A stretch of DNA of 64,000 bases from Actinomycetota bacterium (GCA_023379675.1 JAMCPL010000014.1:72185-136184); one strand, 5' to 3'. Counted from the first letter of the stretch, positions 49,397-60,683 are shown. The notes: a model not told the origin generated them from the sequence alone. Program-made: numbers and translations.

Positions 49397-49472
49397 CCAA
49401 CCTTACAAATGGGGAAGTTCACCGATGCTCGACAATGGAGAACTCCTTATAATCCGGTGCTATGACACATAG
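49397..49472 (+). promoter_or_regulatory. Copy 1 of a repeated ~76-nt 5' element containing a palindromic GGGGAAgTTCaCC core and a 15-codon mini-ORF (49425-49472)
   Basis: It is near-identical to 59803-59881, and its first ~25 nt also occur (reverse strand) at 56458-56482. The mini-ORF MLDNGELLIIRCYDT* overlaps the ATG at 49462. Confidence 0.5.
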
Positions 49473-52400
49473 CATTATAGCCTTAGGCACTCTACCGGTA
49501 GCTCCAGCTGACGCGTCGGCAGGAGTCGGCTGGAGCATGGAATCTGAGGACATGGGAACCAATAGGCTCTCGAGACCAGGCTGGACGACAAGAATCAGCG
49601 CAGGCGCCGGGTCATCGCAGTGGTCACGCAGGCGCGGCAACTCGAGGCCAGGCTGGACAATAAGAATCGCCGCGCGGGCAGCGGCCGTGGTGATGGTGGT
49701 GATAATGCTGGTAATATCCCTTGGGGTGGCTGGAAGCACGGCGGCTGCAGCGCCTATCTCCGCCTCCATCACCAATGCATCTGATTCAAGAGTTCCACTC
49801 CCGTATTCTCTTCCGGTACGGAGTTGGACCGCAGTCATCGCTGATCCATTCGGAGTCGTACCTGCCAACGTTGCCACCAGCACCGCGGGTACGCCTCAGG
49901 ATTTGAGTGGCGCCAGCACCAACGCGGCCGAACTCCCTCAGGTCGTGGCAATCACCCCGAACGGCCAGTACGCCTACGTCCTCGGCAACAGCAACGCCAT
50001 CTATCCCTACGACATCGCCACGAACACCTTCGGTAACCCGATCTCGTTGCCGATCCCCGCCAGCGCCGGCAGCGATGACCCCGTAGCGATCGCAATCACT
50101 CCGGATGGGCAGTACGCCTATGTCGCCGACTATTCGAACAACGTAGTCATACCGGTTGACCTGGCTACTGCGCAGGCGGGCAACGCGATTGTCCTGGGCA
50201 CGAGCCAGGGGTCGCCAATCAGCAATCCGATCGGCATCGCCATAACCCCCGACGGCAATACCGTGTGGGTGGACGCAAGTGGCAACGGAACACAAGTGTT
50301 GGTACCCATCGCCACGGCCACCAACGCCGCCGGTCCCTCCATCGTCATCGACGGATACCCGGGAGCCGAGGCCATAGCGATCGCCCCGGATGGGAAAACC
50401 GCTTATGCCGTTAACTCTCAGGACGGAGTGGTACCTGTGTCTCTCACCACCGGTACCGCCAGCACCGCAATCCCCCTGGGTAATACTGGGCCCATGGGCA
50501 TCGCCATAACCCCCGATGGCGCCACGGCCTGGGTGACTGAGTCCCAGGGCGGCAACGGCAATGGGGCGCTAGTGCCGATTGATCTCGCGACTGGCACTGC
50601 AGGCACCCCGATCACTGACCCATCCATGGCAACACCCATTGGAGTGACAGTGGCCCCGGATGGCCAGTCAGTCTACGTCGGAAATTACGGCGTCACTGCC
50701 GCCGGTAGCGGCGACAACTACATCACGATCATCTCCACGGCTACCAGGACTGTCACTGCAACCATCGACATAAGTTCTCTGGGAGAGAAAGAAGGATCGA
50801 GCATTGCCATCACTCCCGATCAGGCTCCGATTGCCAGGCTTGCAGCCAGCCCGGCGCCTGCGGGGCAAGCAACGAGCTTCGATGCCTCGGCGTCCACCGT
50901 GGCGGTCGGCAACATCGTCTCATATGCATGGAACTTCGGTGACGGGTCGGTAGCTATGACGACATCGCCCACTACAAGTCATGTCTATACGGTCGCCCAG
51001 ACTTACAAGGCCAGCGTCACGGAGACCGATTCGGCAGGTACCTCGACCACGCAGGTCTTCACGGGAACGACGGTTTCCCTGAACGGTGGCCCGTCCGCTG
51101 TCGCGAGCACATCATTCGCCGTTCCGGCAAGCGGACCAGACGTGAGCAGCGTGTCCCCGGACTTCGGTCCGACGGCCGGAGGTACAAGTGTCACGATCAG
51201 CGGTTCAGACTTTGCTTCCGGTGCCGCGGTGACGTTCGGCTCCACCCCGGCCGCCGCCGTGAACGCCGTGTCGACGACTGAGATTGCAGCGACATCGCCC
51301 GCGGGAACCGGTACCGTCGATATCAGGGTCAGCGTGTCCGGCCTGCAGAGCCCAGCAAATGCGGGTGACCGCTTCGCCTACGTGAGCCCGCCTGCTCCCT
51401 ACCACCCGCTTACCCCAGCACGCATATGCGACACCCGAGCAGGCAACCCATCGGGGCTCTCGGGTGGCACCGCCCAGTGCAATGGCAATAGTCTCGAGGG
51501 TGGAACACCCCGGAACATCGCGGTTGCCGGCTTGGGTGGCGTACCGGCCTCGGGTGCTACGGCTGCCGTGCTCAACGTGACGGTCACCGACCCGTCGAAC
51601 GCCGGTTACTTGACCGTATATCCTGCAGGCCAAAACCCGCCCACCGCCTCGAACCTGAACTTTACCCGTGGAGAGACCGTGCCCAACCTGGTTGAAGTGG
51701 TATTGCCCTCCTCGGGGCAGGTATCCATTGTCACCAACACGACCAGTGCTGATGCTATAGTCGATGTGGAAGGCTATGTAGGTCCAGCTTCGGGCGGCTC
51801 GACCGCTGGACTCTACAACCCTCTACCTCCATCACGCATATGCGACACCCGAGCAGGCAACCCATCGGGGCTCTCGGGTGGCACCGCCCAGTGCAATGGC
51901 CAGAGCATCCAGGGTGGAGTGGCGCGCGATGTGAACGTCGTGGGCTTGGGTGGGGTCCCCTCCGCAGGCGTCGAGGCCGTCGTGCTGAACGTCGCGGTAA
52001 CCGGTCCGTCCTCGGTGGGCTTCCTTACGGTGTATCCGGCGGGCCGGAACCGCCCCACTGCATCCAACCTTAACTTTACCCGTGGAGAGACCGTGCCCAA
52101 CCGGGTCATCGTTCCAGTCGGATCGGCAGGACAGGTCGCCCTCTATGCAAATACGGGCAGTCTCAACGTAGTGGTAGATGTAGGCGGCTGGTACACGGAT
52201 GGCTCCGGCTCGTCAAGTGGCTCCTTGCCCTTTACAGCTATGGCGCCGAGCCGTATATGCGATACCCGTACCGGGTCAGGTGAGCCGTACGCAGGAAACA
52301 CGCTTGGCCCCGGTGGTGTGCTGGCTGTTCAGGTGGCAGGTGTAGGTGGCGTACCGGCCGTAGGCTCGTCATCGCCTCCGACGGCCGTCGTGGTAAACAT

Positions 52401-52608
52401 CACAGCCACCAAGGTAAGCTCTGGAAGTTATCTCACCGCCTATCCCGACGGCACGTCACGGCCTACCGCCTCGGACCTGAACCTGTCAGCTGGCAGGACA
52501 GTGCCAAACCTGGTGGTCGTGAAGCTGGGCAGTGACGGCGCCATCGATGTCTACAACTTCGCAGGGTCGACCGACGTGATCATCGATGTGGTCGGCTGGT
52601 ACTCCTGA
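49462..52608 (+). CDS. giant secreted/surface protein: YVTN-type beta-propeller repeats, PKD, IPT/TIG, then three ~135-aa 'RICDTR' modules
   Basis: It has repeated IAITPDGxxAYV motifs, the PKD signature FDASAS...YAWNFGDGS, the IPT signature VSPDFGPTAGGTSVTISG, and three modules over 51399-52605. The true start is uncertain because 49462 lies inside the repeated element. An N-terminal ~40-nt direct repeat occurs at 49569 and 49641. Confidence 0.75.
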   Translation: MTHSIIALGTLPVAPADASAGVGWSMESEDMGTNRLSRPGWTTRISAGAGSSQWSRRRGNSRPGWTIRIAARAAAVVMVVIMLVISLGVAGSTAAAAPISASITNASDSRVPLPYSLPVRSWTAVIADPFGVVPANVATSTAGTPQDLSGASTNAAELPQVVAITPNGQYAYVLGNSNAIYPYDIATNTFGNPISLPIPASAGSDDPVAIAITPDGQYAYVADYSNNVVIPVDLATAQAGNAIVLGTSQGSPISNPIGIAITPDGNTVWVDASGNGTQVLVPIATATNAAGPSIVIDGYPGAEAIAIAPDGKTAYAVNSQDGVVPVSLTTGTASTAIPLGNTGPMGIAITPDGATAWVTESQGGNGNGALVPIDLATGTAGTPITDPSMATPIGVTVAPDGQSVYVGNYGVTAAGSGDNYITIISTATRTVTATIDISSLGEKEGSSIAITPDQAPIARLAASPAPAGQATSFDASASTVAVGNIVSYAWNFGDGSVAMTTSPTTSHVYTVAQTYKASVTETDSAGTSTTQVFTGTTVSLNGGPSAVASTSFAVPASGPDVSSVSPDFGPTAGGTSVTISGSDFASGAAVTFGSTPAAAVNAVSTTEIAATSPAGTGTVDIRVSVSGLQSPANAGDRFAYVSPPAPYHPLTPARICDTRAGNPSGLSGGTAQCNGNSLEGGTPRNIAVAGLGGVPASGATAAVLNVTVTDPSNAGYLTVYPAGQNPPTASNLNFTRGETVPNLVEVVLPSSGQVSIVTNTTSADAIVDVEGYVGPASGGSTAGLYNPLPPSRICDTRAGNPSGLSGGTAQCNGQSIQGGVARDVNVVGLGGVPSAGVEAVVLNVAVTGPSSVGFLTVYPAGRNRPTASNLNFTRGETVPNRVIVPVGSAGQVALYANTGSLNVVVDVGGWYTDGSGSSSGSLPFTAMAPSRICDTRTGSGEPYAGNTLGPGGVLAVQVAGVGGVPAVGSSSPPTAVVVNITATKVSSGSYLTAYPDGTSRPTASDLNLSAGRTVPNLVVVKLGSDGAIDVYNFAGSTDVIIDVVGWYS

Positions 52609-52618
52609 GACCGGTGAG

Positions 52619-53794
52619 TTATGAGGTGCCGGCCACACCCATGCCGTAAAGGGCCATGTCGTAGTAGGAGCTCGAGCCGTTAGTCACGATCGTCAGGTTC
52701 ACGTCAAGTGGCGTGACGGCCTTGGGAGCGAAGGCGACCTGGAACGTGGCGCTCTGGCCGACATCGAGTACCAAGTCGGTACTGCAACCCGACCAGTTGC
52801 CGGAAGCAGGCATGAAGCAGCCCTTAGAGATCGTGCTGCTGCTGAACACGTAGTCGGCGGCAGCTCCCGGCTCCCCGGCAACACCAATCCCGTCGATCAC
52901 CAGTGGCGCGTTCCCCGGAGGGGGGTTTGAGATCGTGACCGTCTGCGCAGCAGACGACTTTCCGACCTGCGTTTCTCCGAACTGCAGCTTAGAAGGGCTG
53001 ACCACGATATTCGGGGCGACGGTCACGGTCTCGAAGTCGACCTGGAGCGTTGCCGAGCCCGTCCCCGCGCACGAGTTGTGAAGACCGGTAGCGGGACCCA
53101 TGTGAAGGGGCGGGCAGTAGGTCAGATGGAAGGTCCCCGTGTACTTGTTCGACGTCTTGGGCGTACAGGAGACGTTCGGTCCACCCGGATTTCCCGGCGC
53201 CGTCTGGAGGGATGTGCTGCCCAGCGTGAAGCCCTTGCAGGAGAGAGCGCCCTTGCCAGACCGGAGGCCCTGGGCAGAGGTGAACACCCACTGCGGCGCT
53301 CCCTCGTACAGGAACGCCACCTGCGGTGGGGACGGGATGACCATGCTCGCGGGGTATGTCAGATTGACGAGCATGTCCCCGGTCCAGCTGCCGCCGGATG
53401 GTCCTGGGACGGAGAACTGGCCGATACAGGCTTGCTCGGAAGCTACTGGCTGCCTTTCCAGCGATACGCCACCCACCGCGAGCTGCCCTGTTCGTGGCGA
53501 GAAGGAGGCCGCCTGATCCTTCAGATCGAAGGTGTAGTCCTGTCGCCAAGAGAAAGTGCAATCGGGGAGCGTTGTGGTCTGGGTCAGGTTGAAAGACCCC
53601 GAGCCGGAGACCTTGGCGCCGATCAGCGTTTTGTTTGGTGCCGTTGTCGGTGGTGAAGGCAGGGTCGAGCTGGACCCAGAAGTCGTGGTCGTGGAGGCTG
53701 GTGGCTGAGGGCCGTCGCTGCACGCCGCAACGGAGGTGCCCAGTGCCAGCACGGTCATGCCCGCCGCCAGCATCCCTGCTCTCTGCACGTGCAT
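52619..53794 (-). CDS. hypothetical lipoprotein with a C-terminal ASH/choice-of-anchor-D-like Ig domain
   Basis: The lipobox is LALGTSVAAC. The C-terminus reads SPSKLQFGETQVGKSSAAQTVTISN...GQSATFQVAFAP. Confidence 0.6.
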   Translation of the reverse strand: MHVQRAGMLAAGMTVLALGTSVAACSDGPQPPASTTTTSGSSSTLPSPPTTAPNKTLIGAKVSGSGSFNLTQTTTLPDCTFSWRQDYTFDLKDQAASFSPRTGQLAVGGVSLERQPVASEQACIGQFSVPGPSGGSWTGDMLVNLTYPASMVIPSPPQVAFLYEGAPQWVFTSAQGLRSGKGALSCKGFTLGSTSLQTAPGNPGGPNVSCTPKTSNKYTGTFHLTYCPPLHMGPATGLHNSCAGTGSATLQVDFETVTVAPNIVVSPSKLQFGETQVGKSSAAQTVTISNPPPGNAPLVIDGIGVAGEPGAAADYVFSSSTISKGCFMPASGNWSGCSTDLVLDVGQSATFQVAFAPKAVTPLDVNLTIVTNGSSSYYDMALYGMGVAGTS

Positions 53795-53816
53795 GCCGAG
53801 ATCTGCCGGTGCTTTC

Positions 53817-56462
53817 CTACTGGTACCAGCCCACGACGTCCGCTACCACGTCGACGCTGCCTGCATTATTGAAGATTGACACCTGGCCGCTGGAACCGAT
53901 CTTCACGATTACGAGGTTCGGAACCGTCTCACCAAGCGCCCAGTTGAGATCGGAAGCCGTAGGGCGGTTTTGGCCTGTAGGCCATATGGTGAGATAGCTT
54001 GACGCCGTCGTGTGAGCAACCGTCACGTTCAGAACGACGGCGGTGGCTCCTGCCGGTACCCCGCCGACCCCTTGCACCTGAACTGCGAGAGAATCTCCTG
54101 GAGAGAGCGTCTGGCCTTCGTAGGGCTCTCCGGATCCCTGGCGGGTGTCGAGGATGCGGGCCGGGGTGATACCGGAGAACTGGGTAAGAGTGCTCCCCGT
54201 GCCGCCGGGAAGGGTGTACCAGCCCCCCACGTCCACTATCACGTTCGCCTGTCCTGAATTGTTGTAGATGGATACCTGGCCTTTGGGTCCGACCGGTACG
54301 GATACCCGGTTCGGTGTCGTCACGCCTTTCGTCCAGTTCAAGTTGGAAGCGGTAGGCCTTGGCGAACCTTGTGGCCACACGGTTAGGTAGCTCGATGCAG
54401 TAGTTCCGCTTACCGTCACGTTCAGAACTACCCCGGCCACCCCGCTTGCTGGCACGCCGCCCGCCCCCGCCGCCTGTATGGTCATGGTCTTTCCTCCGGA
54501 CAGCAGGCCGTCGGTGTTACACTGGGCTTCGGCGCCGGAGAGACCCGAGGGGTTGCCTGCCCTCGTGTCGCAAATGCGGGCAGGTGAGAGCGCATTGAAG
54601 AGGCCCGCTCCAGAAGTTGCCGGTCCTACATAGCCTTCTACGTCCACGATGACATCGGCGGAGCTGACGTTGTCGTAGATGGACACCTGCCCGGACGAGC
54701 CGAGAGCCACCTCCACGAGGTTCGGGACGGCCTCGCCTTTCGAGAAGTTCAGGTTGGAAGAAAGCGGCTCGGCGGTGCCGGACGGATAGATCGTGAAGAA
54801 TCCGGCTGCGCCGGCATTGTCTGCAGTCACATTCAGTACGGCAGCAGTGGCACCTGTGGAGGGGACCCCTCCCGAGGTCTGGCCGTTCGGGTCTGTTCCT
54901 GCCACTTGGATCGTAAGGGGGGTACCTCCCACAAGTGTCTTTCCTGCGCACTGAGCGTCTTGTCCTGACAGCCCCGAGGGGTTGCCTGCCCTCGTGTCGC
55001 AGATGCGGTAAGGGGTGAGCGGGTTGTATGGCGCTGGTACCGTCGGCTGGGAGGGGATCACCGGCTCAGAGGCCGCGGACCAGGGCCCGTTACCGTCGCA
55101 GTTGGTGGCCGCCACCATAAAGGTGTACTTCGTGCCGTTGGAAAGGCCAGTCACGCTGTAGCTGGTAGAGGTCGTGCCAGTAGCGGTGGAACTGACTAGG
55201 GTGGTGCCCGAGTAGACGGCGATGTCGTAGCTCGTGATCGGGCACTCGCCCTGCGAGGTTGGCGCCGTCCAAGAGAGGGCAGCCGTCGCGTTGGCCGGTG
55301 TTGCTATCACATTGTTCGGCTTGCCAGGCACGGTGTCGGCGTTGGTGTAGATGAAGAGGTAGCCGGTTGTGCTGTCGTCTCCTGCAGCACAGAAGGAGAT
55401 CGAAGGGCAAGAGATGGCCACGAGATTCCCGTTCGTGTCGACAGAGACCGCAGTGCTCCACGAAGTGCCGTCGAAGTAGAAGACATCCCCGAAGTAGGTT
55501 CCGTGTGCGCTCGAGGCACTCGCCACGCAGAACTTGGTGCTCGCGCAGGACACATCTTTGAGCTCCTCCTCGTTCTGGGGCACGACGGTTGTGGGTGAAG
55601 ACCATGTCGTCCCGTCGAAGGTGAGCGCTTGCCCTATCCAATCGACCGCTACACAGAACGACGGGGTGGGGCACGAGACGGACTCGATCTCACCGGTGTC
55701 GATCGGGTCGAGGGCGCTCCAAGCCGATCCGTCGTAGCTCGCGACGTCTCCCATGCCGTCGGTCGCGATGCACATGGTGGAGCTGGCGCACGATACCGAG
55801 ACCAGGGTCTTGGAGGTGGTACTGGTGTTGTCGACGAAAGTCGGCACTGTCCAGGTGGATCCGTCGTAGGTCATCGCGTAGCCGTTCGCGTCGACAGCTG
55901 CACAGAAGTTGGCGCTCGGGCACGACACGGACTCGAGAGAGACGGCATTCTGGCCCTGGTTTGCACTCCCCTGACCATCGATCAGAGTGGGTTTGCCCCA
56001 GGTGCCGTTCGAGTACTCGGTTGCGTAGCCCAAGCTGTCGACGACCATGCAGAAGGTGGTCGTCGGGCAGGAGATGTCCATAGCCCAGCTACCGTTGCCA
56101 TTCACCTCGGTATCGACGTGATTGCTGCTGGGATCGGTCCAGGCGGTGCCATTGTAGAAGACAGCGTCACCGGAACTGTCGACAGCCATACACCAGGTTG
56201 AACTCACGCACGACATCCCGGCAAACGACGGGGACTCCGGATAGATGTTGTTCTGGTGGGGATCGAGCGGCGCGCTCCAAGTTCCGGTCGAGGCCGCTGC
56301 GAGAGGGCTGACGGTGAGGACGCTTGTCATGACGTATACCACTAGGACGGATACCGCGAGGAAGGGCTGCCACCTGGACAAGAGCCGAACGACATAGACA
56401 TGCGTTTTTCCTGGAAATGATTGCATACCTCCAAGATTAGGGAGCGTCGCTGGCCATAGCAT
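53817..56462 (-). CDS. giant secreted/surface protein: Cys-pair ~42-aa repeats, FN3, then three 'RICDTR' modules
   Basis: It has repeats of the form YDGSTWT...VSCASSTMCIA, the FN3 signature PGKPNNVIATPANATAALSWTAP, and three modules over 53820-55040. The start is ATG 56462 or 56426. Confidence 0.75.
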   Translation of the reverse strand: MLWPATLPNLGGMQSFPGKTHVYVVRLLSRWQPFLAVSVLVVYVMTSVLTVSPLAAASTGTWSAPLDPHQNNIYPESPSFAGMSCVSSTWCMAVDSSGDAVFYNGTAWTDPSSNHVDTEVNGNGSWAMDISCPTTTFCMVVDSLGYATEYSNGTWGKPTLIDGQGSANQGQNAVSLESVSCPSANFCAAVDANGYAMTYDGSTWTVPTFVDNTSTTSKTLVSVSCASSTMCIATDGMGDVASYDGSAWSALDPIDTGEIESVSCPTPSFCVAVDWIGQALTFDGTTWSSPTTVVPQNEEELKDVSCASTKFCVASASSAHGTYFGDVFYFDGTSWSTAVSVDTNGNLVAISCPSISFCAAGDDSTTGYLFIYTNADTVPGKPNNVIATPANATAALSWTAPTSQGECPITSYDIAVYSGTTLVSSTATGTTSTSYSVTGLSNGTKYTFMVAATNCDGNGPWSAASEPVIPSQPTVPAPYNPLTPYRICDTRAGNPSGLSGQDAQCAGKTLVGGTPLTIQVAGTDPNGQTSGGVPSTGATAAVLNVTADNAGAAGFFTIYPSGTAEPLSSNLNFSKGEAVPNLVEVALGSSGQVSIYDNVSSADVIVDVEGYVGPATSGAGLFNALSPARICDTRAGNPSGLSGAEAQCNTDGLLSGGKTMTIQAAGAGGVPASGVAGVVLNVTVSGTTASSYLTVWPQGSPRPTASNLNWTKGVTTPNRVSVPVGPKGQVSIYNNSGQANVIVDVGGWYTLPGGTGSTLTQFSGITPARILDTRQGSGEPYEGQTLSPGDSLAVQVQGVGGVPAGATAVVLNVTVAHTTASSYLTIWPTGQNRPTASDLNWALGETVPNLVIVKIGSSGQVSIFNNAGSVDVVADVVGWYQ

Positions 56463-56482
56463 CGGGAAGTTCCCCTATTTTT
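56458..56482 (-). promoter_or_regulatory. Copy 3 (partial) of the repeated 5' element: aaaatAGGGGAACTTCCCGATGCT
   Basis: The reverse complement of 56458-56482 matches aaatGGGGAAGTTCACCGATGCT of copies 1 and 2. Here the ATG (56462) opens the long ORF. Confidence 0.45.
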
Positions 56483-56585
56483 AGGAGTAGACGGATAGGA
56501 GCGGGGCACAAGCCCGGCGCAGCACTACCAAGCACTCAACAGCATCCGACACGACTTCCTGACTTTCTGGCCTTCTGGATGACAG

Positions 56586-59441
56586 CTAGGACGCCCCGGC
56601 GCTCGGGTGGCACTCCTCGACCAGATCATCGCGCCAGGTGAGCATGAGTTCCCTTCTGGAGCCGATCCCGAGCTTCGCATACACACTTGACAGGTGGTGG
56701 TCGACGGTCTTCGGCGATATGAAGAGGCGCTCCGCCAGCTGCTTGTTCGTGAGGCCTCCCGCAGCCAGCGCTGCGACGCGCTTCTCCTGGGGACTGAGCA
56801 CCACACGTGAAGCGGACTTGCGACGGCGCCCTCCTGCGGCGGCGAGTTCCTGTTTGGCAATCCGTTGGATCCGCACCGCTCCCGCCGGTTCTGCAAGGTC
56901 GAGCGCCCGTCGCAACACACCCTTGGCCGGCACCGCTCGATCAGTCAAGCGCAGGAACCTACCGTACGCGACGAGCGTCTCTGCCTCTGCGAGCGGCATC
57001 CCAACCCCGCAGTGGTGACCGAGAGCCTCCTCGTAGAGCCTCTCGGCATCGTCAAGCTTTCCCAGACGCCATGCCAACGTTGCCCGACCGGCAGCGGCCA
57101 CAGCACGCGGAGTACGACACTCCAGCGGTTCGCAGCGCTCTTCGAGGGAATCGAGCAAGCCCTCGAGGCGATCGAGTTTCCGAGCGGACGCATAGGCCTC
57201 GATCGCCGCCGCATGCCAGGGCACGACGCAGGGCTCGAGTATGCCGGACTCCCCTGCCAGCGACCCGGCGCACTCGGCAGCAGCTACGGCCTCGGTAATC
57301 CGCCCCGCCTGCAAGTGGTCGCGGCACGTGACAAGCAACAGCCAGAGACGCAGGTAGGGCGGGTCGCCCATCACGGTAGCCGCGGCATCGACACGTTCGA
57401 GCCACATGGCGCTCTCCTCGTCGCGTCCGAGTTCCTGGCAGAGATGCGCCATTCCCACTGAGGCGTGCGTTCCCACCGCTCTCGCTATCTCGATCATCTC
57501 GGTGGCCGATCGGAGCAGGCCGTATGCCTCTTCGATACGCCCCACTCGCCACAGCGTGTCGGCGTGGTTCACTGCATAGCCCTCATAGGTGAGCATCGCG
57601 CCCTGGCTCATCGCCCGACTCGCGATCGAGGCGTGGGCGGCCGCCTCCTCCTCGAAGCGCTCCGCCAGCTTCGCCAGCAACGAGTACCCGAACCGCACGT
57701 CCCAGAACCACGGAGTTGGATCATTGGCGGCTTCCGCCTCGAGGGCTACACCGGCAGCTTCCGCTACGGCATCGATGCCGTACGCATCGCCCTGCAGGTA
57801 CGCGAGGTAGGCGTCCGCAGTTAAGGCTGACAGGTGAAGTCGCTCATCGACGATCCCATACTTATCGATCATGGACAACACGCGCTGGGTTGTGGCACGC
57901 GCTCTCCGCGGTCCTTCGAAGAGCCAACCGAAGAAGGTGTAGTCGAGCAATGTATCGCAGGCAAGCACGGGATCGAACTCGAGCGCGATCGACGATGCCT
58001 CCTCAGAGCACTTCTTCGCTCCGGCAAGGGAGACGGTGGCGAGCAGCACTTGGGCGAGCAGGCGTAGGACCGCGACGCGTTCAGGACCGGACAACGGCTC
58101 CCTGGTGGCGACACCTGTGTCGAGTACGGCCCGAAGCACCTCCTCCGCCTCCGTGGCGTGTCCTATCGCCAGTTCGGCTTGGGCCAGCTCGATCTGCAAG
58201 CCAAGCGGCGCGGAACCCTCGGCCATACCGACAGCGCTTTTCAGGTGCTCCACCGCGGTCGCGAGCGCCCCTGCCGCAACGCTGACGCGACCAGCTTCGG
58301 CGAGCGCGCCGATCGCCTCGGGGTCTCCTCGCATCCCTGCTGCGACCGCGTGGGAGGCAGCCGCCGGCGCGCCACGAGCGTGCAGCACGCGGAATGCCTG
58401 AGTGTGCATGGCGCGGCGTACCGGCTCGGGCATGTCCTCGTAGAGCGCTTCGCGGAACAGGGGATGGACAAACTCGGCGTCGTCACGGGGGGTACCCCGG
58501 ACGAGCCCAGCACGGCAGAGCGCGTCGAGTGCAGCGAGGGACACCGCCTCGCTCTGTCCGACCAGACCAGCTACAACAGACGTGCTGAAACGCGTACCGA
58601 GCACGCTCGCTCCTCGGGCAAAGTGCAGCGCGCTGGTCCCGACTCCGGCGAATCGGGCCAGGTAGATCCGCTCGGCCAATGCGCGGGCAGATTTGGTGGC
58701 GGCAATAGATGACCCCTCGCTCCGACGCCAAGTGGAGGCGAGCTCTCCAAGCAGGAGCGGGTTGCCCGCGCATACTCCCAACGCCCGAGTTGCCAGATCA
58801 TCAGGTACGTCGTTACCCAGGTGCTTGGCCAAGAGTGCTCGGCCGGCACCATCGGACAGTGGCGCAAGACGTTCGATGGTTGCATGCCCCTCAACGGCCA
58901 ACAGGCGCGCTTGACCGTACGCCAGGTCCGGCCACGGGCGCGCCGCGGCCACTACGGCGACCGGAATCCCCCCTATCCTCCTGCAAATGAGCGCCAGGAG
59001 TTCCGCTGAGTCGGTGTCCGCCCAGTGAAGATCGTCGATCGCAACCAACAATGGCTTTGGCGCACGCTCTCGTAGCCAATCGAGGAGATCCACGTAGTGC
59101 CTCGCCCGTGCCTCGCCCGATCCGATTCCGTCCCGCCCTCCCGCAAACACTCCGAGCCCACCGAACAGGCGGGTAAGCAACCCAAAAGGAAGCACCGACT
59201 CCGCCTCCGAGCAGCCGGCCGCCCTTATGGTGAAGTCCGTGGCGCGCGCGCAGGCATCCGCGAAGAGGGTCGTCTTGCCAAGACCTGCTTCACCGATCAA
59301 GAACAGCACGCCGCCCTCGCCTGCGCGCCCCCTTCTGAGGATCTCCGCCACGGCTTCAAGTGCCGCCTCGCGCTCAAGCAGGTCCGGGCCGGTCCCTAGC
59401 GAGGCCGAGGCTCCAAGGAACCGATCCTTCCCCACCATCAA
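56586..59441 (-). CDS. LAL-type (large ATP-binding LuxR family) transcriptional regulator
   Basis: It has an N-terminal Walker A GEAGLGKTTL, a long helical/TPR-like middle, and a C-terminal HTH LSPQEKRVAALAAGGLTNKQLAERLFISPKTVDHHLSSVYAKLG. Confidence 0.85.
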   Translation of the reverse strand: MMVGKDRFLGASASLGTGPDLLEREAALEAVAEILRRGRAGEGGVLFLIGEAGLGKTTLFADACARATDFTIRAAGCSEAESVLPFGLLTRLFGGLGVFAGGRDGIGSGEARARHYVDLLDWLRERAPKPLLVAIDDLHWADTDSAELLALICRRIGGIPVAVVAAARPWPDLAYGQARLLAVEGHATIERLAPLSDGAGRALLAKHLGNDVPDDLATRALGVCAGNPLLLGELASTWRRSEGSSIAATKSARALAERIYLARFAGVGTSALHFARGASVLGTRFSTSVVAGLVGQSEAVSLAALDALCRAGLVRGTPRDDAEFVHPLFREALYEDMPEPVRRAMHTQAFRVLHARGAPAAASHAVAAGMRGDPEAIGALAEAGRVSVAAGALATAVEHLKSAVGMAEGSAPLGLQIELAQAELAIGHATEAEEVLRAVLDTGVATREPLSGPERVAVLRLLAQVLLATVSLAGAKKCSEEASSIALEFDPVLACDTLLDYTFFGWLFEGPRRARATTQRVLSMIDKYGIVDERLHLSALTADAYLAYLQGDAYGIDAVAEAAGVALEAEAANDPTPWFWDVRFGYSLLAKLAERFEEEAAAHASIASRAMSQGAMLTYEGYAVNHADTLWRVGRIEEAYGLLRSATEMIEIARAVGTHASVGMAHLCQELGRDEESAMWLERVDAAATVMGDPPYLRLWLLLVTCRDHLQAGRITEAVAAAECAGSLAGESGILEPCVVPWHAAAIEAYASARKLDRLEGLLDSLEERCEPLECRTPRAVAAAGRATLAWRLGKLDDAERLYEEALGHHCGVGMPLAEAETLVAYGRFLRLTDRAVPAKGVLRRALDLAEPAGAVRIQRIAKQELAAAGGRRRKSASRVVLSPQEKRVAALAAGGLTNKQLAERLFISPKTVDHHLSSVYAKLGIGSRRELMLTWRDDLVEECHPSAGAS

Positions 59442-59802
59442 GAGCTCCTAAAGGGAAATGGCGACTGCAGCCATCTCGGAGATCACAGGCCGAACCTTTT
59501 TCTCGAGCCGGTGCCAAATTCGCGCAGTTGCCACTGCGCCGGCGAACACAACCACCGAGCGGTGGCCGGCGAAGCCCTCCTGGCCGACCCATGGCGACAT
59601 GACACTGTTCCGGCTCATATAATCAGTGGGCATTCCTGCCCTGCAACTTGGCGATGATATACATCTCATATTTAAGGTTACCATGGTCACCGGCAAAACG
59701 CAGGACTTTTACCTTGATAAACGTGCTAATCAAGGCGTTACCTCGAAAGAAGTTCACGGCCGCTTCGGAATCTGGCTTAGAGGCCGGCGTATCGACAAGG
59801 AA

Positions 59803-59881
59803 CCAACCTTACAAATGGGGAGGTTCCCCGATGCTCGACAATGGAGAACCCCTTATGATTCTGTTCTATGGCACATTGTGA
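59803..59881 (+). promoter_or_regulatory. Copy 2 of the repeated ~76-nt 5' element with a 16-codon mini-ORF (59831-59881)
   Basis: It reads ccaaccttacaaatGGGGAGGTTCCCCgATGctcgacaatggagaacccctt... The mini-ORF is MLDNGEPLMILFYGTL*. Confidence 0.5.
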
Positions 59882-59968
59882 GCTTCGTTTCCGGCATATC
59901 GGTACATCCATCGGTCATGCTTATGGTCCTTCAAGGCATTGCAGCTGATTCCTTGCAACGACCGCTGG

Positions 59969-60010
59969 AACTCGCCGTGCATGCAGGAAAACTCGCCGTG
60001 CATGCAGGAA
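59969..60010. repeat. Perfect 2x21-bp tandem repeat aactcgccgTGCATGCAggaa
   Basis: 59969-59989 equals 59990-60010. Each unit carries the palindrome TGCATGCA. It lies about 55 nt upstream of the ATG at 60066. Confidence 0.7.
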
Positions 60011-60065
60011 AGAGCCACAAGGCAATAGATTCGACAACACAACTATGACTACGGAGGTTTGGCAT

Positions 60066-60683
60066 ATGAGTACATTGAATAGAATCGAGGAACCGTTGAA
60101 TGGTCTTTTCGGCGATGAGGGTCCCGTTCAACTCCCAGATGCGGCAAAGGACTGGATTGCCCGTTATGCATGGATGTTGGCTCTTATCGGTGGAGTATCA
60201 TTGCTCTTGTCATCGTGGGCATTCTGGACGGCCGCCAATGCCCTCCACGCATTAAATGCATACTGCAATTCGTATGCCGGCAACCCTTATTTGAGGGGGA
60301 TTGCCCATGAGTGCATGGCGTCGTCGCCCGGAGTGTTCTTTTACGTGGCGTTTATAACCGTATTGGCAACTGGCATCTTGTATATAGTTGCTGCACTGAA
60401 ACTCAAGGAGATGTCCAAAGTTGGATGGGATCTTTTGTTCCTAGCTAGTTTGGTATACCTTGTTTACGGGATATTAACAATATTTGCTGGATATGGTATC
60501 AATATCGTCGCTGCTGTAATTGGAGCGGCTGTCACGTGGTTTTTCCTCTTTCAAATCCGGAGCCGCTTTACAGGAGAAGTTCCCCTACCACCTGCGATGC
60601 CGCATATGTCACCGCAGCCGCCATCGCAATATCCTCCTTCAAACCCTGGACCACCAGCGCCCCCATCACTTCCACAGGGATAA
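60066..60683 (+). CDS. hypothetical polytopic membrane protein with a Pro-rich C-terminus
   Basis: GGAGG lies 8 nt upstream of the ATG at 60066. It has four hydrophobic segments and the tail PPAMPHMSPQPPSQYPPSNPGPPAPPSLPQG. Confidence 0.6.
   Translation: MSTLNRIEEPLNGLFGDEGPVQLPDAAKDWIARYAWMLALIGGVSLLLSSWAFWTAANALHALNAYCNSYAGNPYLRGIAHECMASSPGVFFYVAFITVLATGILYIVAALKLKEMSKVGWDLLFLASLVYLVYGILTIFAGYGINIVAAVIGAAVTWFFLFQIRSRFTGEVPLPPAMPHMSPQPPSQYPPSNPGPPAPPSLPQG

Follow-up and report, generated by a model that had tools for sequence, protein, structure and literature searches.

A repeated palindromic element beside a LAL regulator gene of an uncultured actinobacterium: a probable activator-dependent promoter module of surface and membrane protein genes

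In a stretch of 64,000 nucleotides from an uncultured actinobacterium (contig C14:72185-136184 of an assembly of 2.34 Mb in 33 contigs with 56.5% G+C, denoted G000), which as a whole is called the window here, a short element with a palindromic core occurs at the 5' ends of three surface or membrane protein genes that surround the gene of a LAL/LuxR-type regulator. The question raised by this locus is how the element acts: as DNA, being the site of a dimeric regulator, or as RNA, being a leader with a mini open reading frame (mini-ORF) and a helix, both of which had been suggested in a first-pass annotation of the window. Based on the comparison of sequences described below, we consider it likely that the three copies are activator-dependent promoters, with the palindromic box being bound by the adjacent LAL regulator, which switches on the neighbouring surface and membrane protein genes. 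The nearest LAL-bearing relatives of the source genome are metagenome-assembled genomes (MAGs) of Acidimicrobiia.

The three copies, with positions counted in the window and with the scores from a position weight matrix (PWM) of the box, are as follows.

49397-49475, plus strand: copy 1, complete candidate promoter module, reaching from about -65 to +14 with respect to the predicted transcription start, 67/79 identities with copy 2, PWM 28.5 bits.
59803-59881, plus strand: copy 2, complete candidate promoter module in divergent orientation to the LAL gene, whose start is about 360 nt away, PWM 32.9 bits.
56412-56489, minus strand: copy 3, candidate promoter module having the box and the -10 hexamer in common with copies 1 and 2, PWM 30.4 bits.

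The alignment of copies 1 and 2 is free of gaps (by BLAST, 89% identity over 74 nt) and has sharp ends, with the left flanks agreeing at 1 of 20 positions over 20 nt and the similarity stopping about 15 nt past the common ATG. Copy 3 (about 56458-56484 on the minus strand) is short and has only the box and the -10 hexamer in common with the other two. The two long plus-strand copies and the shorter minus-strand one are thus present as had been described in the first-pass annotation, and all three stand at the 5' ends of the genes it named around the LAL gene; the palindrome, too, agrees with that description. It is noted that copy 3, as the top non-self match of the genome to a 36-nt core profile, has a genome-wide E-value of 4.7 only; what makes it convincing is its location in the 10-kb interval between copies 1 and 2, its PWM score of 30 bits against at most 19 elsewhere, and its -10 at the same spacing. 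In the PWM scan of the whole source genome the three sites stand alone, scoring 28-33 bits and having in every case a -10 at +24 (counted from the G of GATG), while the next-best site has at most 19 bits and a -10 is absent from all the remaining sites.

The genome-wide search that the first-pass annotation had called for gives two full copies only, with BLAST, mismatch scans and nhmmer in agreement. No full-length copy was found by BLAST with the 84-nt element in 60 related genomes, where the short matches (for example ATGGGGAAGTTCACC) have E-values no better than 0.03, lie in unrelated, mostly coding-looking contexts and are ascribed to chance. An exact 22-mer from the spacer of copies 1 and 2 has zero matches in the metagenome contigs scanned, implying that these provide no extra full-length copies for a covariation analysis. 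Since there are two full copies in the source genome and none in the 60 relatives or in the 22-mer scan, the element is not a generic repeat recurring at many unrelated loci. Copies 1 and 2 might still be the functionless relic of a duplication or a small mobile repeat, as their sharp boundaries, unrelated flanks and identity of 85-89% would allow. An interspersed repeat such as a miniature inverted-repeat transposable element is, however, expected in many copies with terminal inverted repeats, while two full copies are present in 2.34 Mb and no terminal inverted repeats were noticed on reading the ends, with no repeat finder having been run. Moreover, the box and the -10 are common to copy 3 and to sites of other families at a fixed spacing. 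We regard a relic or mobile repeat as barely credible.

The part common to all the copies contains a box of 17-18 bp, an imperfect inverted repeat of the 7-3-7 form, ATGGGGA-N3-TCCCGAT, where the right arm of copies 1 and 2 has one added base, so that the box can be written as ATGGGGA-N3-TCCC(C)GAT. Its three putative operators are given here without strand.

49409-49426: putative operator of copy 1, ATGGGGA-AGT-TCACCGAT, imperfect inverted repeat, centre at -45 from ATG 49462.
59815-59832: putative operator of copy 2, ATGGGGA-GGT-TCCCCGAT, GGGGA/TCCCC arms perfect, centre at -45 from its ATG.
56461-56478: putative operator of copy 3, ATAGGGGA-ACT-TCCCGAT, centre at -43.5 from ATG 56426.

Across the sites in this and other genomes the central spacer has 3 nt, at times 4 nt, and is free in sequence, with the flanks being AT and AT. 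In two boxes from other loci (L047b and L048b) the two arms are altered in concert, from GGGGA..TCCCC to GGGCA..TGCCC, which is what would be expected for a site read by a symmetric dimer. A second operator was also sought in the spacer of copies 1 and 2, where ATGGAGA occurs 26 nt after ATGGGGA; this candidate was rejected, being a half-site alone and on the opposite helical face.

Besides its symmetry, the box has a fixed relation to a sequence on one side of it. Downstream of each box in the window a -10 hexamer is present.

49448-49453, plus strand: -10 hexamer of copy 1, TATAAT, 24 nt past the G of GATG.
59854-59859, plus strand: -10 hexamer of copy 2, TATGAT, with the predicted start near 59868.
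56434-56439, minus strand: -10 hexamer of copy 3, TAATCT, 24 nt past the G of GATG and 7 nt before ATG 56426.

Among 15 LAL-associated boxes, a hexamer of the form N-A-n-n-n-T lies at +24/+25 from the G of GATG in 14 (background 0.035 per position; P = 9e-16) and the strict form TANNNT in 9 (P = 7e-16), and the P values stay below 1e-11 once two non-independent pairs are removed. By contrast, in the mirror orientation, i.e., on the other side of the palindrome, the hexamer is present in 1 of the 15. This fixed, one-sided spacing implies that the box belongs to a directional promoter rather than being a free-standing palindrome. With a 17-bp spacer, the -35 position falls on a degenerate aTGcyn at the right end of the box, where the conserved 'ATG' gives the TG. 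In the element, a conserved repeat thus overlaps the -35 and keeps a constant spacing to the -10, as in promoters of the LAL/MalT type. The promoters of the three copies are not called in a scan with the sigma-70 consensus, because the -35 is lacking. A reading with a promoter of the extracytoplasmic function type (GGAAC as -35, CGTC-like -10) was inspected by eye and dropped, nothing suitable being present at 16-17 nt.

The distance from the -10 also bears on where the transcripts would start. The gap from the hexamer to the ATG is 8, 8 and 7 nt in copies 1, 2 and 3, respectively, with the hexamer starting 14, 14 and 13 nt before the ATG, and among the 15 sites an ATG or GTG is present at +37 to +40 in 7 (P = 9e-4). 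The start codon is thus frequently at the predicted transcription start, which implies a leaderless mRNA. Leaderless transcripts are frequent in Actinobacteria, and in the source genome TANNNT is enriched 2-4-fold where the hexamer starts 12-15 nt before the starts of open reading frames (ORFs) (79, 46, 38 and 54 occurrences versus a background of about 18, in 1580 long ORFs), showing that leaderless starts are common there. Two predicted gene starts follow from the promoter geometry: ATG 49462 is kept for the gene behind copy 1, and ATG 56426 replaces 56462 for the gene behind copy 3. The latter is in frame, 12 codons inside the longest ORF, and gives the N-terminus MQSFPGKTHVYVVRLLSRW..., a plausible signal anchor.

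Which protein would bind the box? The gene enclosed by the copies is the following.

56586-59441, minus strand: LAL regulator of 951 aa with P-loop AAA_16 domain, TPR region and C-terminal GerE/LuxR helix-turn-helix (HTH) domain by Pfam; the proposed binder of the box.

The protein has all that is expected of the LAL class, namely an N-terminal P-loop NTPase (AAA_16, residues 21-157, E = 5e-14, with the Walker A motif GEPGLGK invariant among the orthologues), a C-terminal LuxR/GerE HTH (residues 881-933, E = 3e-15, with matches in the PDB to DosR, ComA, GerE and NarL) and a long helical, TPR-like middle, where matches to TPR_12 and TPR_19 under the Pfam cut-offs lie at the expected location; the size also fits the usual 900-1000 aa or so. 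The nearest HTH in the PDB is that of DosR/DevR (E = 1e-8), and in the recognition helix the LAL protein has K-T-V-D-H-H where DosR has K-T-V-K-N-Y, with the equivalents of K179 and T180 being kept.

The box also accompanies orthologues of this LAL gene in genomes of other Acidimicrobiia families. Orthologues are present in the genomes denoted G012 (54% identity), G005 (49%), G019 (38%) and G023 (about 33%), and additional ones with 46-50% identity on contigs of Acidimicrobiia MAGs, while in four genomes of the same genus as the source no LAL protein match at E<=1e-20 was found. In G012 the box GGGGAACCTCCCGATG lies directly 3' of the LAL gene, which is the arrangement of copy 3, and GGAGAACCTCCCGATG is divergent from the LAL 5' end; in G023, GGGGACTCTCCCGATG lies within the divergent intergenic region at the LAL gene; and in G005 a three-gene operon has a box upstream. 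At the loci L047, L048 and L050 the boxes are 70-110 nt from the LAL start, and those of L048 and L050 are in the orientation of the LAL gene itself, suggesting autoregulation. The exact 16-mer GGGGANNNTCCCGATG has one match in all of G012 (3.3 Mb) and one in all of G023 (3.2 Mb), and both are beside the LAL gene. In a scan of 126 loci with LAL relatives, using patterns built only from the three copies of the window, 10 of the 21 matches fall in the LAL-proximal 5.2% of the bases (binomial p = 3e-8), while the reversed-pattern control gives 0 of 2 in the proximal part. The matches are concentrated in the close orthologues, 4 of the 8 loci at >=44% identity having one, and the distant relatives (about 43% identity or less) are mostly without a box, from which it follows that the operator is specific to the orthologous subfamily. 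Operator and regulator therefore occur together across genomes. Immediately 3' of the gene of one more distant relative (37% identity, on a contig from a soil metagenome) there is the perfect 7-3-7 palindrome TCGGGGA-CTT-TCCCCGA (L126:5226-5246), where a -10 at the usual spacing is absent.

A further test was made on sites that are unlinked to the LAL gene and outside the training of the PWM, by looking upstream of the closest orthologues of the protein encoded behind copy 3 (target 3), which lie on contigs C138 and C220 of G012 and on contig C1 of G005. Three of the four regions have a box just upstream, with 19.7, 27.8 and 23.5 bits, in the right orientation and with TANNNT at +24, and on C220 the predicted start falls on the estimated start codon. 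The background is 10 matches of >=18 bits per 1.37 Mb on both strands, giving about 0.007 expected in three 300-bp regions. For the paralogue on contig C23 of G023 no upstream box was found. The first-pass annotation had taken the palindromic core for the site of a dimeric regulator in a local regulon of the LAL/LuxR gene, and this is backed by the co-localisation with LAL genes, by the symmetric variation of the arms and by the boxes at unlinked orthologues of the target.

Several observations weigh against the proposal. First, directly ahead of the LAL gene itself there is no box in the window. Second, the loci L045, L049 and L051 have close LAL orthologues and no box within two mismatches, on contigs that are short or have the LAL gene at their edge. 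Third, the exact 16-mer of the box (GGGGAATCTCCCGATG) is present elsewhere in the source genome, at C13:11694-11709, 27 nt into the coding sequence of a response regulator of 229 aa that looks, by appearance rather than from Pfam, to be of the NarL/LuxR type, with no -10 at +24/25 of this 16-mer. Fourth, the ATG at the predicted start opens a frame of only 5 codons at the G012 site G012a and of 26 codons at copy 2. Fifth, copies 1 and 2 differ at 3 of 51 positions upstream of the -10 (about -65 to -15) and at 9 of 28 from the -10 onward (Fisher p = 0.003), and this excess conservation upstream is not accounted for by a bare operator plus a -10. A recent duplication alone would give an even spread of differences; possible reasons are gene conversion or additional contacts, both in the spacer and upstream of the box.

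The site on C13 also bears on whether a real box could be bound by another regulator, such as a response regulator of the NarL/DosR type, which would be in line with an exact 16-mer within the first 45 nt of a NarL-type response-regulator gene and with the resemblance of the half-site to the GGGAC half-site of DosR. The site is, however, intragenic and without a -10 at the right spacing, so that as an operator it is a probable chance match. By contrast, the LAL protein is the sole regulator consistently adjoining the box in G000, G012, G023, L047, L048 and L050, the sole exact genome-wide match in G012 and that in G023 adjoin the LAL gene, and the same-genus genomes in which the LAL match at E<=1e-20 was not found gave only chance-level short matches to the 84-nt element. 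We consider binding by another regulator to be very unlikely.

In the model that we propose, the inverted repeat has its centre roughly 44 bp upstream of the start of transcription and overlaps a degenerate -35, which is followed by a 17-bp spacer and a TAnnnT -10. Transcription would start 7-8 nt past the -10. For copies 1 and 3 this is at the A of the gene's own ATG, so that their mRNAs would be leaderless, while with copy 2 the membrane protein gene would be preceded by a leader of about 200 nt. The adjacent LAL protein, a MalT-like STAND ATPase, would bind the repeat as a dimer through its LuxR-type HTH, and when activated by its signal would recruit RNA polymerase in a class-II manner, with the dimer or an oligomer replacing the missing -35 contact. 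The output would be two large surface proteins, a small membrane protein and probably a 391-aa protein downstream of one of them. Copies 1 and 2 would be the recent duplicate of the whole module of about 75 bp, placed before unrelated genes.

That the LAL protein activates rather than represses is what we infer from the design of the promoters. A repressor could have the same architecture, sitting on the -35 and blocking RNA polymerase until the signal releases it, which is compatible with the overlap of the box and the -35 region. Repression stays a rival because of SCO6993, a LAL protein that represses and binds promoter palindromes, including that of its own promoter (PMC9628970). By contrast, a usable TTGACA-like -35 is present in none of the promoters here, where there is aTGcyn only and which the sigma-70 scan does not call. 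A poor -35 is typical of activator-dependent promoters. In addition, the boxes are centred at -43.5 to -45 and the motif's 3' end lies 34-36 nt from the predicted start, in agreement with the activators DosR and the MalT proteins of Actinoplanes and E. coli. With these data repression appears unlikely.

The other proposal of the first-pass annotation was that the element contains a Shine-Dalgarno-like sequence followed by a mini-ORF, and an RNA helix with one paired change between copies 1 and 2. If so, the element could act as RNA, i.e., as a 5' leader in which a translated mini-ORF and a hairpin control the translation or the termination downstream. This would fit the better folding of copy 1 than of its shuffles (z = -2.97), the single paired difference from A-U to G-C between copies 1 and 2, the GGGGA located 9 nt ahead of the ATG of the mini-ORF, the overlap of the mini-ORF stop of copy 1 with ATG 49462, and the unexpectedly strong conservation upstream of the -10 in copies 1 and 2. 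It is true that the mini-ORF strings MLDNGELLIIRCYDT and MLDNGEPLMILFYGTL, each followed by a stop, are present; as a functional unit with the Shine-Dalgarno-like sequence they find no support. The ATG of the mini-ORF makes up the outer part of both the right half-site and the weak -35, the mini-ORFs of copies 1 and 2 have 7 differences, of which 5 affect codon position 2 and one converts the stop codon, and the frames at homologous sites are unlike, being ML followed by a stop (2 codons) in G023 and 17 unrelated codons in G012, so that an upstream ORF conserved under coding constraint was not found in this comparison. Moreover, under the promoter model the mini-ORF starts at about -37, upstream of the predicted transcription start, and it would thus not be transcribed from the promoter of the box; more generally, with the directional -10 lying downstream of the mini-ORF start in 14 of the 15 sites, most of the element would be untranscribed.

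Similarly, the paired difference of A-T to G-C exists between copies 1 and 2, and the helix itself does not hold up over 13 homologous sites, where the proposed pairs can form in 51.6% of the cells compared with 37-48% in slid controls. The RNAalifold consensus keeps the palindrome alone, as a 4-bp stem of -2.4 kcal/mol. The minimum-energy fold of copy 2 (z = -0.83) is not that of copy 1, and for copy 3 the z value is +0.32. Nothing relevant was found in Rfam, either with the whole window at gathering thresholds or with the element at E<=10, and a conserved RNA structure backed by covariation was not found among these sites. An action as RNA is highly improbable based on these results, and the lead of a leader peptide or riboswitch-like RNA is removed as false.

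Returning to the activator-dependent promoters, the relation of copies 1 and 2 suggests how such a regulon may grow. The two are 85-89% identical from about -65 to +14, with unrelated flanks and with unrelated genes downstream, and it is conceivable, as a tentative idea that we hold to be doubtful, that the regulons of this lineage grow by copying the whole promoter-operator cassette of about 75 bp before new genes. Under this idea the excess conservation upstream would be due to the oligomeric STAND regulator, or RNA polymerase, making additional contacts outside the 17-bp box. If general, the copying would amount to a cut-and-paste capture of promoters without a transposable element.

The design proposed here, in which a dimer of the LuxR type sits at about -44 of a promoter whose -35 is poor, is familiar from MalT, DosR, PimM and LuxR and would not surprise specialists; the operator sequence matches none of those of MalT, DosR and PAS-LuxR, while the design is the same. 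The closest parallel is the LAL protein MalT of Actinoplanes sp. SE50/110, which activates 17 promoters via the palindrome TCATCC-N5-GGATGA, which overlaps the -35 and has its 3' end 34.4 +/- 1 nt away from the mapped transcription start site (TSS), compared with boxes at -34.5 to -35.5 for E. coli MalT (PMC7567727). The two systems have in common a regulator that is a MalT-like STAND ATPase with an HTH of the LuxR type, an inverted repeat of 17 bp over the -35, the distance from motif to TSS (here 34-36 nt between the motif's 3' end and a predicted TSS), a regulon adjoining the regulator, poorly annotated targets and a patchy phyletic distribution. They differ in the operator, here ATGGGGA-N3-TCCCGAT, in the regulon, here much smaller with three promoters, in the targets, here surface and membrane proteins, and in the leaderless starts predicted for about half of the present promoters; also, the starts of Actinoplanes MalT are mapped, while those of the present module are predictions.

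The archetypal LAL protein, E. coli MalT, whose activation requires ligand and ATP, has the box GGGGA[T/G]GAGG with the core GGA[T/G]GA (quoted in PMC7567727 and PMC9628970), which also begins with GGGGA at about -35; its boxes are asymmetric and occur in several direct or inverted copies, while each promoter here has one symmetric 7-3-7 site. The DosR box is centred at -43.5 beside a suboptimal -35, and its GGGACT/GTCCC is read via K179, K182 and N183 (PMC13486717). DosR/DevR of Mycobacterium tuberculosis (PDB 1ZLK, 3C3W) is similar to the LAL protein here in having the closest solved HTH, a dimer on a palindrome with G-rich half-sites of the GGGAC type, the -43.5 centre, the suboptimal -35 with a good -10 and the conserved K179/T180 equivalents; by contrast, it is a response regulator rather than a STAND ATPase, its K182, N183 and Y184 are D, H and H in the LAL protein, and its half-sites differ in sequence and spacing. 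Finally, the PAS-LuxR regulators bind CTVGGGAWWTCCCBAG in the -35 region (PMC9774167). PimM and its relatives resemble the present case in the LuxR-type HTH, the GGGA..TCCC palindrome, its position in the -35 region and the activator role, and differ in a centre of 2 nt (here 3), in the flanks CTV/BAG (here AT/AT), in the PAS domain in place of the STAND ATPase and in the targets, which serve polyene biosynthesis. Since the box lacks the W-W centre and the CTV/BAG flanks of the 16-bp consensus, it may work alike and is not a member of the PAS-LuxR operators.

To our knowledge, binding sites are known for very few LAL regulators, and what is provided here is a precise and testable operator and promoter design for a LAL subfamily of uncultured Acidimicrobiia, together with a tie between a LAL regulator and a large family of uncharacterised surface proteins having Cys-pair repeats. 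The candidate target genes in the window are as follows.

49462-52608, plus strand: target 1, surface protein of 1048 aa with beta-propeller, PKD and TIG domains by Pfam; ATG 8 nt past the -10, predicted leaderless, start at predicted TSS+1.
53817-56426, minus strand: target 3, 869 aa (MQSF...), with signal anchor, Cys-pair repeats, fn3 and a C-terminal cassette; predicted leaderless start at 56426, not 56462.
52619-53794, minus strand: Ig-like (ASH/Cep192-type) protein of 391 aa with weak Pfam matches, on the same strand as target 3 with a 22-nt gap.
60045-60683, plus strand: target 2, membrane protein of 205 or 212 aa with a weak DUF4064-like match; predicted leader of about 180-200 nt, GGAGG before ATG 60066.

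The gene of the 391-aa protein is probably co-transcribed with target 3. Targets 1 and 3 have in common a C-terminal cassette of about 400 aa with 61% identity, and target 3 is 74% identical to a protein encoded in the operon of G005 that a box precedes. Behind the boxes of G000, G005, G012 and G023 there are surface proteins with Cys-pair repeats, with the N-terminal Cys-pair-repeat domain of target 3 recurring behind boxes in G012 (a secreted protein of 121 aa) and in G023 (655 aa); further box-led targets are small membrane proteins and one protein headed by a MauE/DoxX domain. This domain of target 3 (window 55299-56426) belongs to a paralogous family with 23 matches in G000, 78 in G023 and <=24 in the same-genus genomes, where the LAL match was not found, and many of its members sit in proteins of 1500-2700 aa, so only a subset of the family is under the box promoter. 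The MauE/DoxX-headed protein is that of L047:1269-3242 (minus strand), with 657 aa, an N-terminal MauE/DoxX membrane domain (E = 1e-23), a long C-terminal region without a Pfam match and its ATG at predicted TSS+3.

Some minor features of these genes are also noted. The ATG at the predicted start of copy 2 opens, at 59868-59948, the 26-codon frame MAHCELRFRHIGTSIGHAYGPSRHCS followed by a stop, which may be either a remnant left by duplication from copy 1 or a short ORF without a leader. Between this promoter and ATG 60066, within the predicted leader of about 200 nt, there is a perfect tandem duplication of 21 bp at 59969-60010 (two units of ACTCGCCGTGCATGCAGGAAA) with the palindrome TGCATGCA in each unit, which could be the site of a second regulator or an RNA feature. 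Copy 1 only has a perfect 7-bp hairpin, TGCTATG-ACA-CATAGCA, around ATG 49462 (49456-49476); as it is not conserved in copy 2, it is probably outside the shared element, and it could affect the 5' end of the leaderless mRNA. Further downstream, in the N-terminal coding region of the 1048-aa protein, a direct repeat of about 42 nt occurs twice, 72 nt apart, at 49569-49610 and 49641-49682 (RPGWTTRISAGAG and RPGWTIRIAARAA), and terminator-like matches on the minus strand fall within these repeats.

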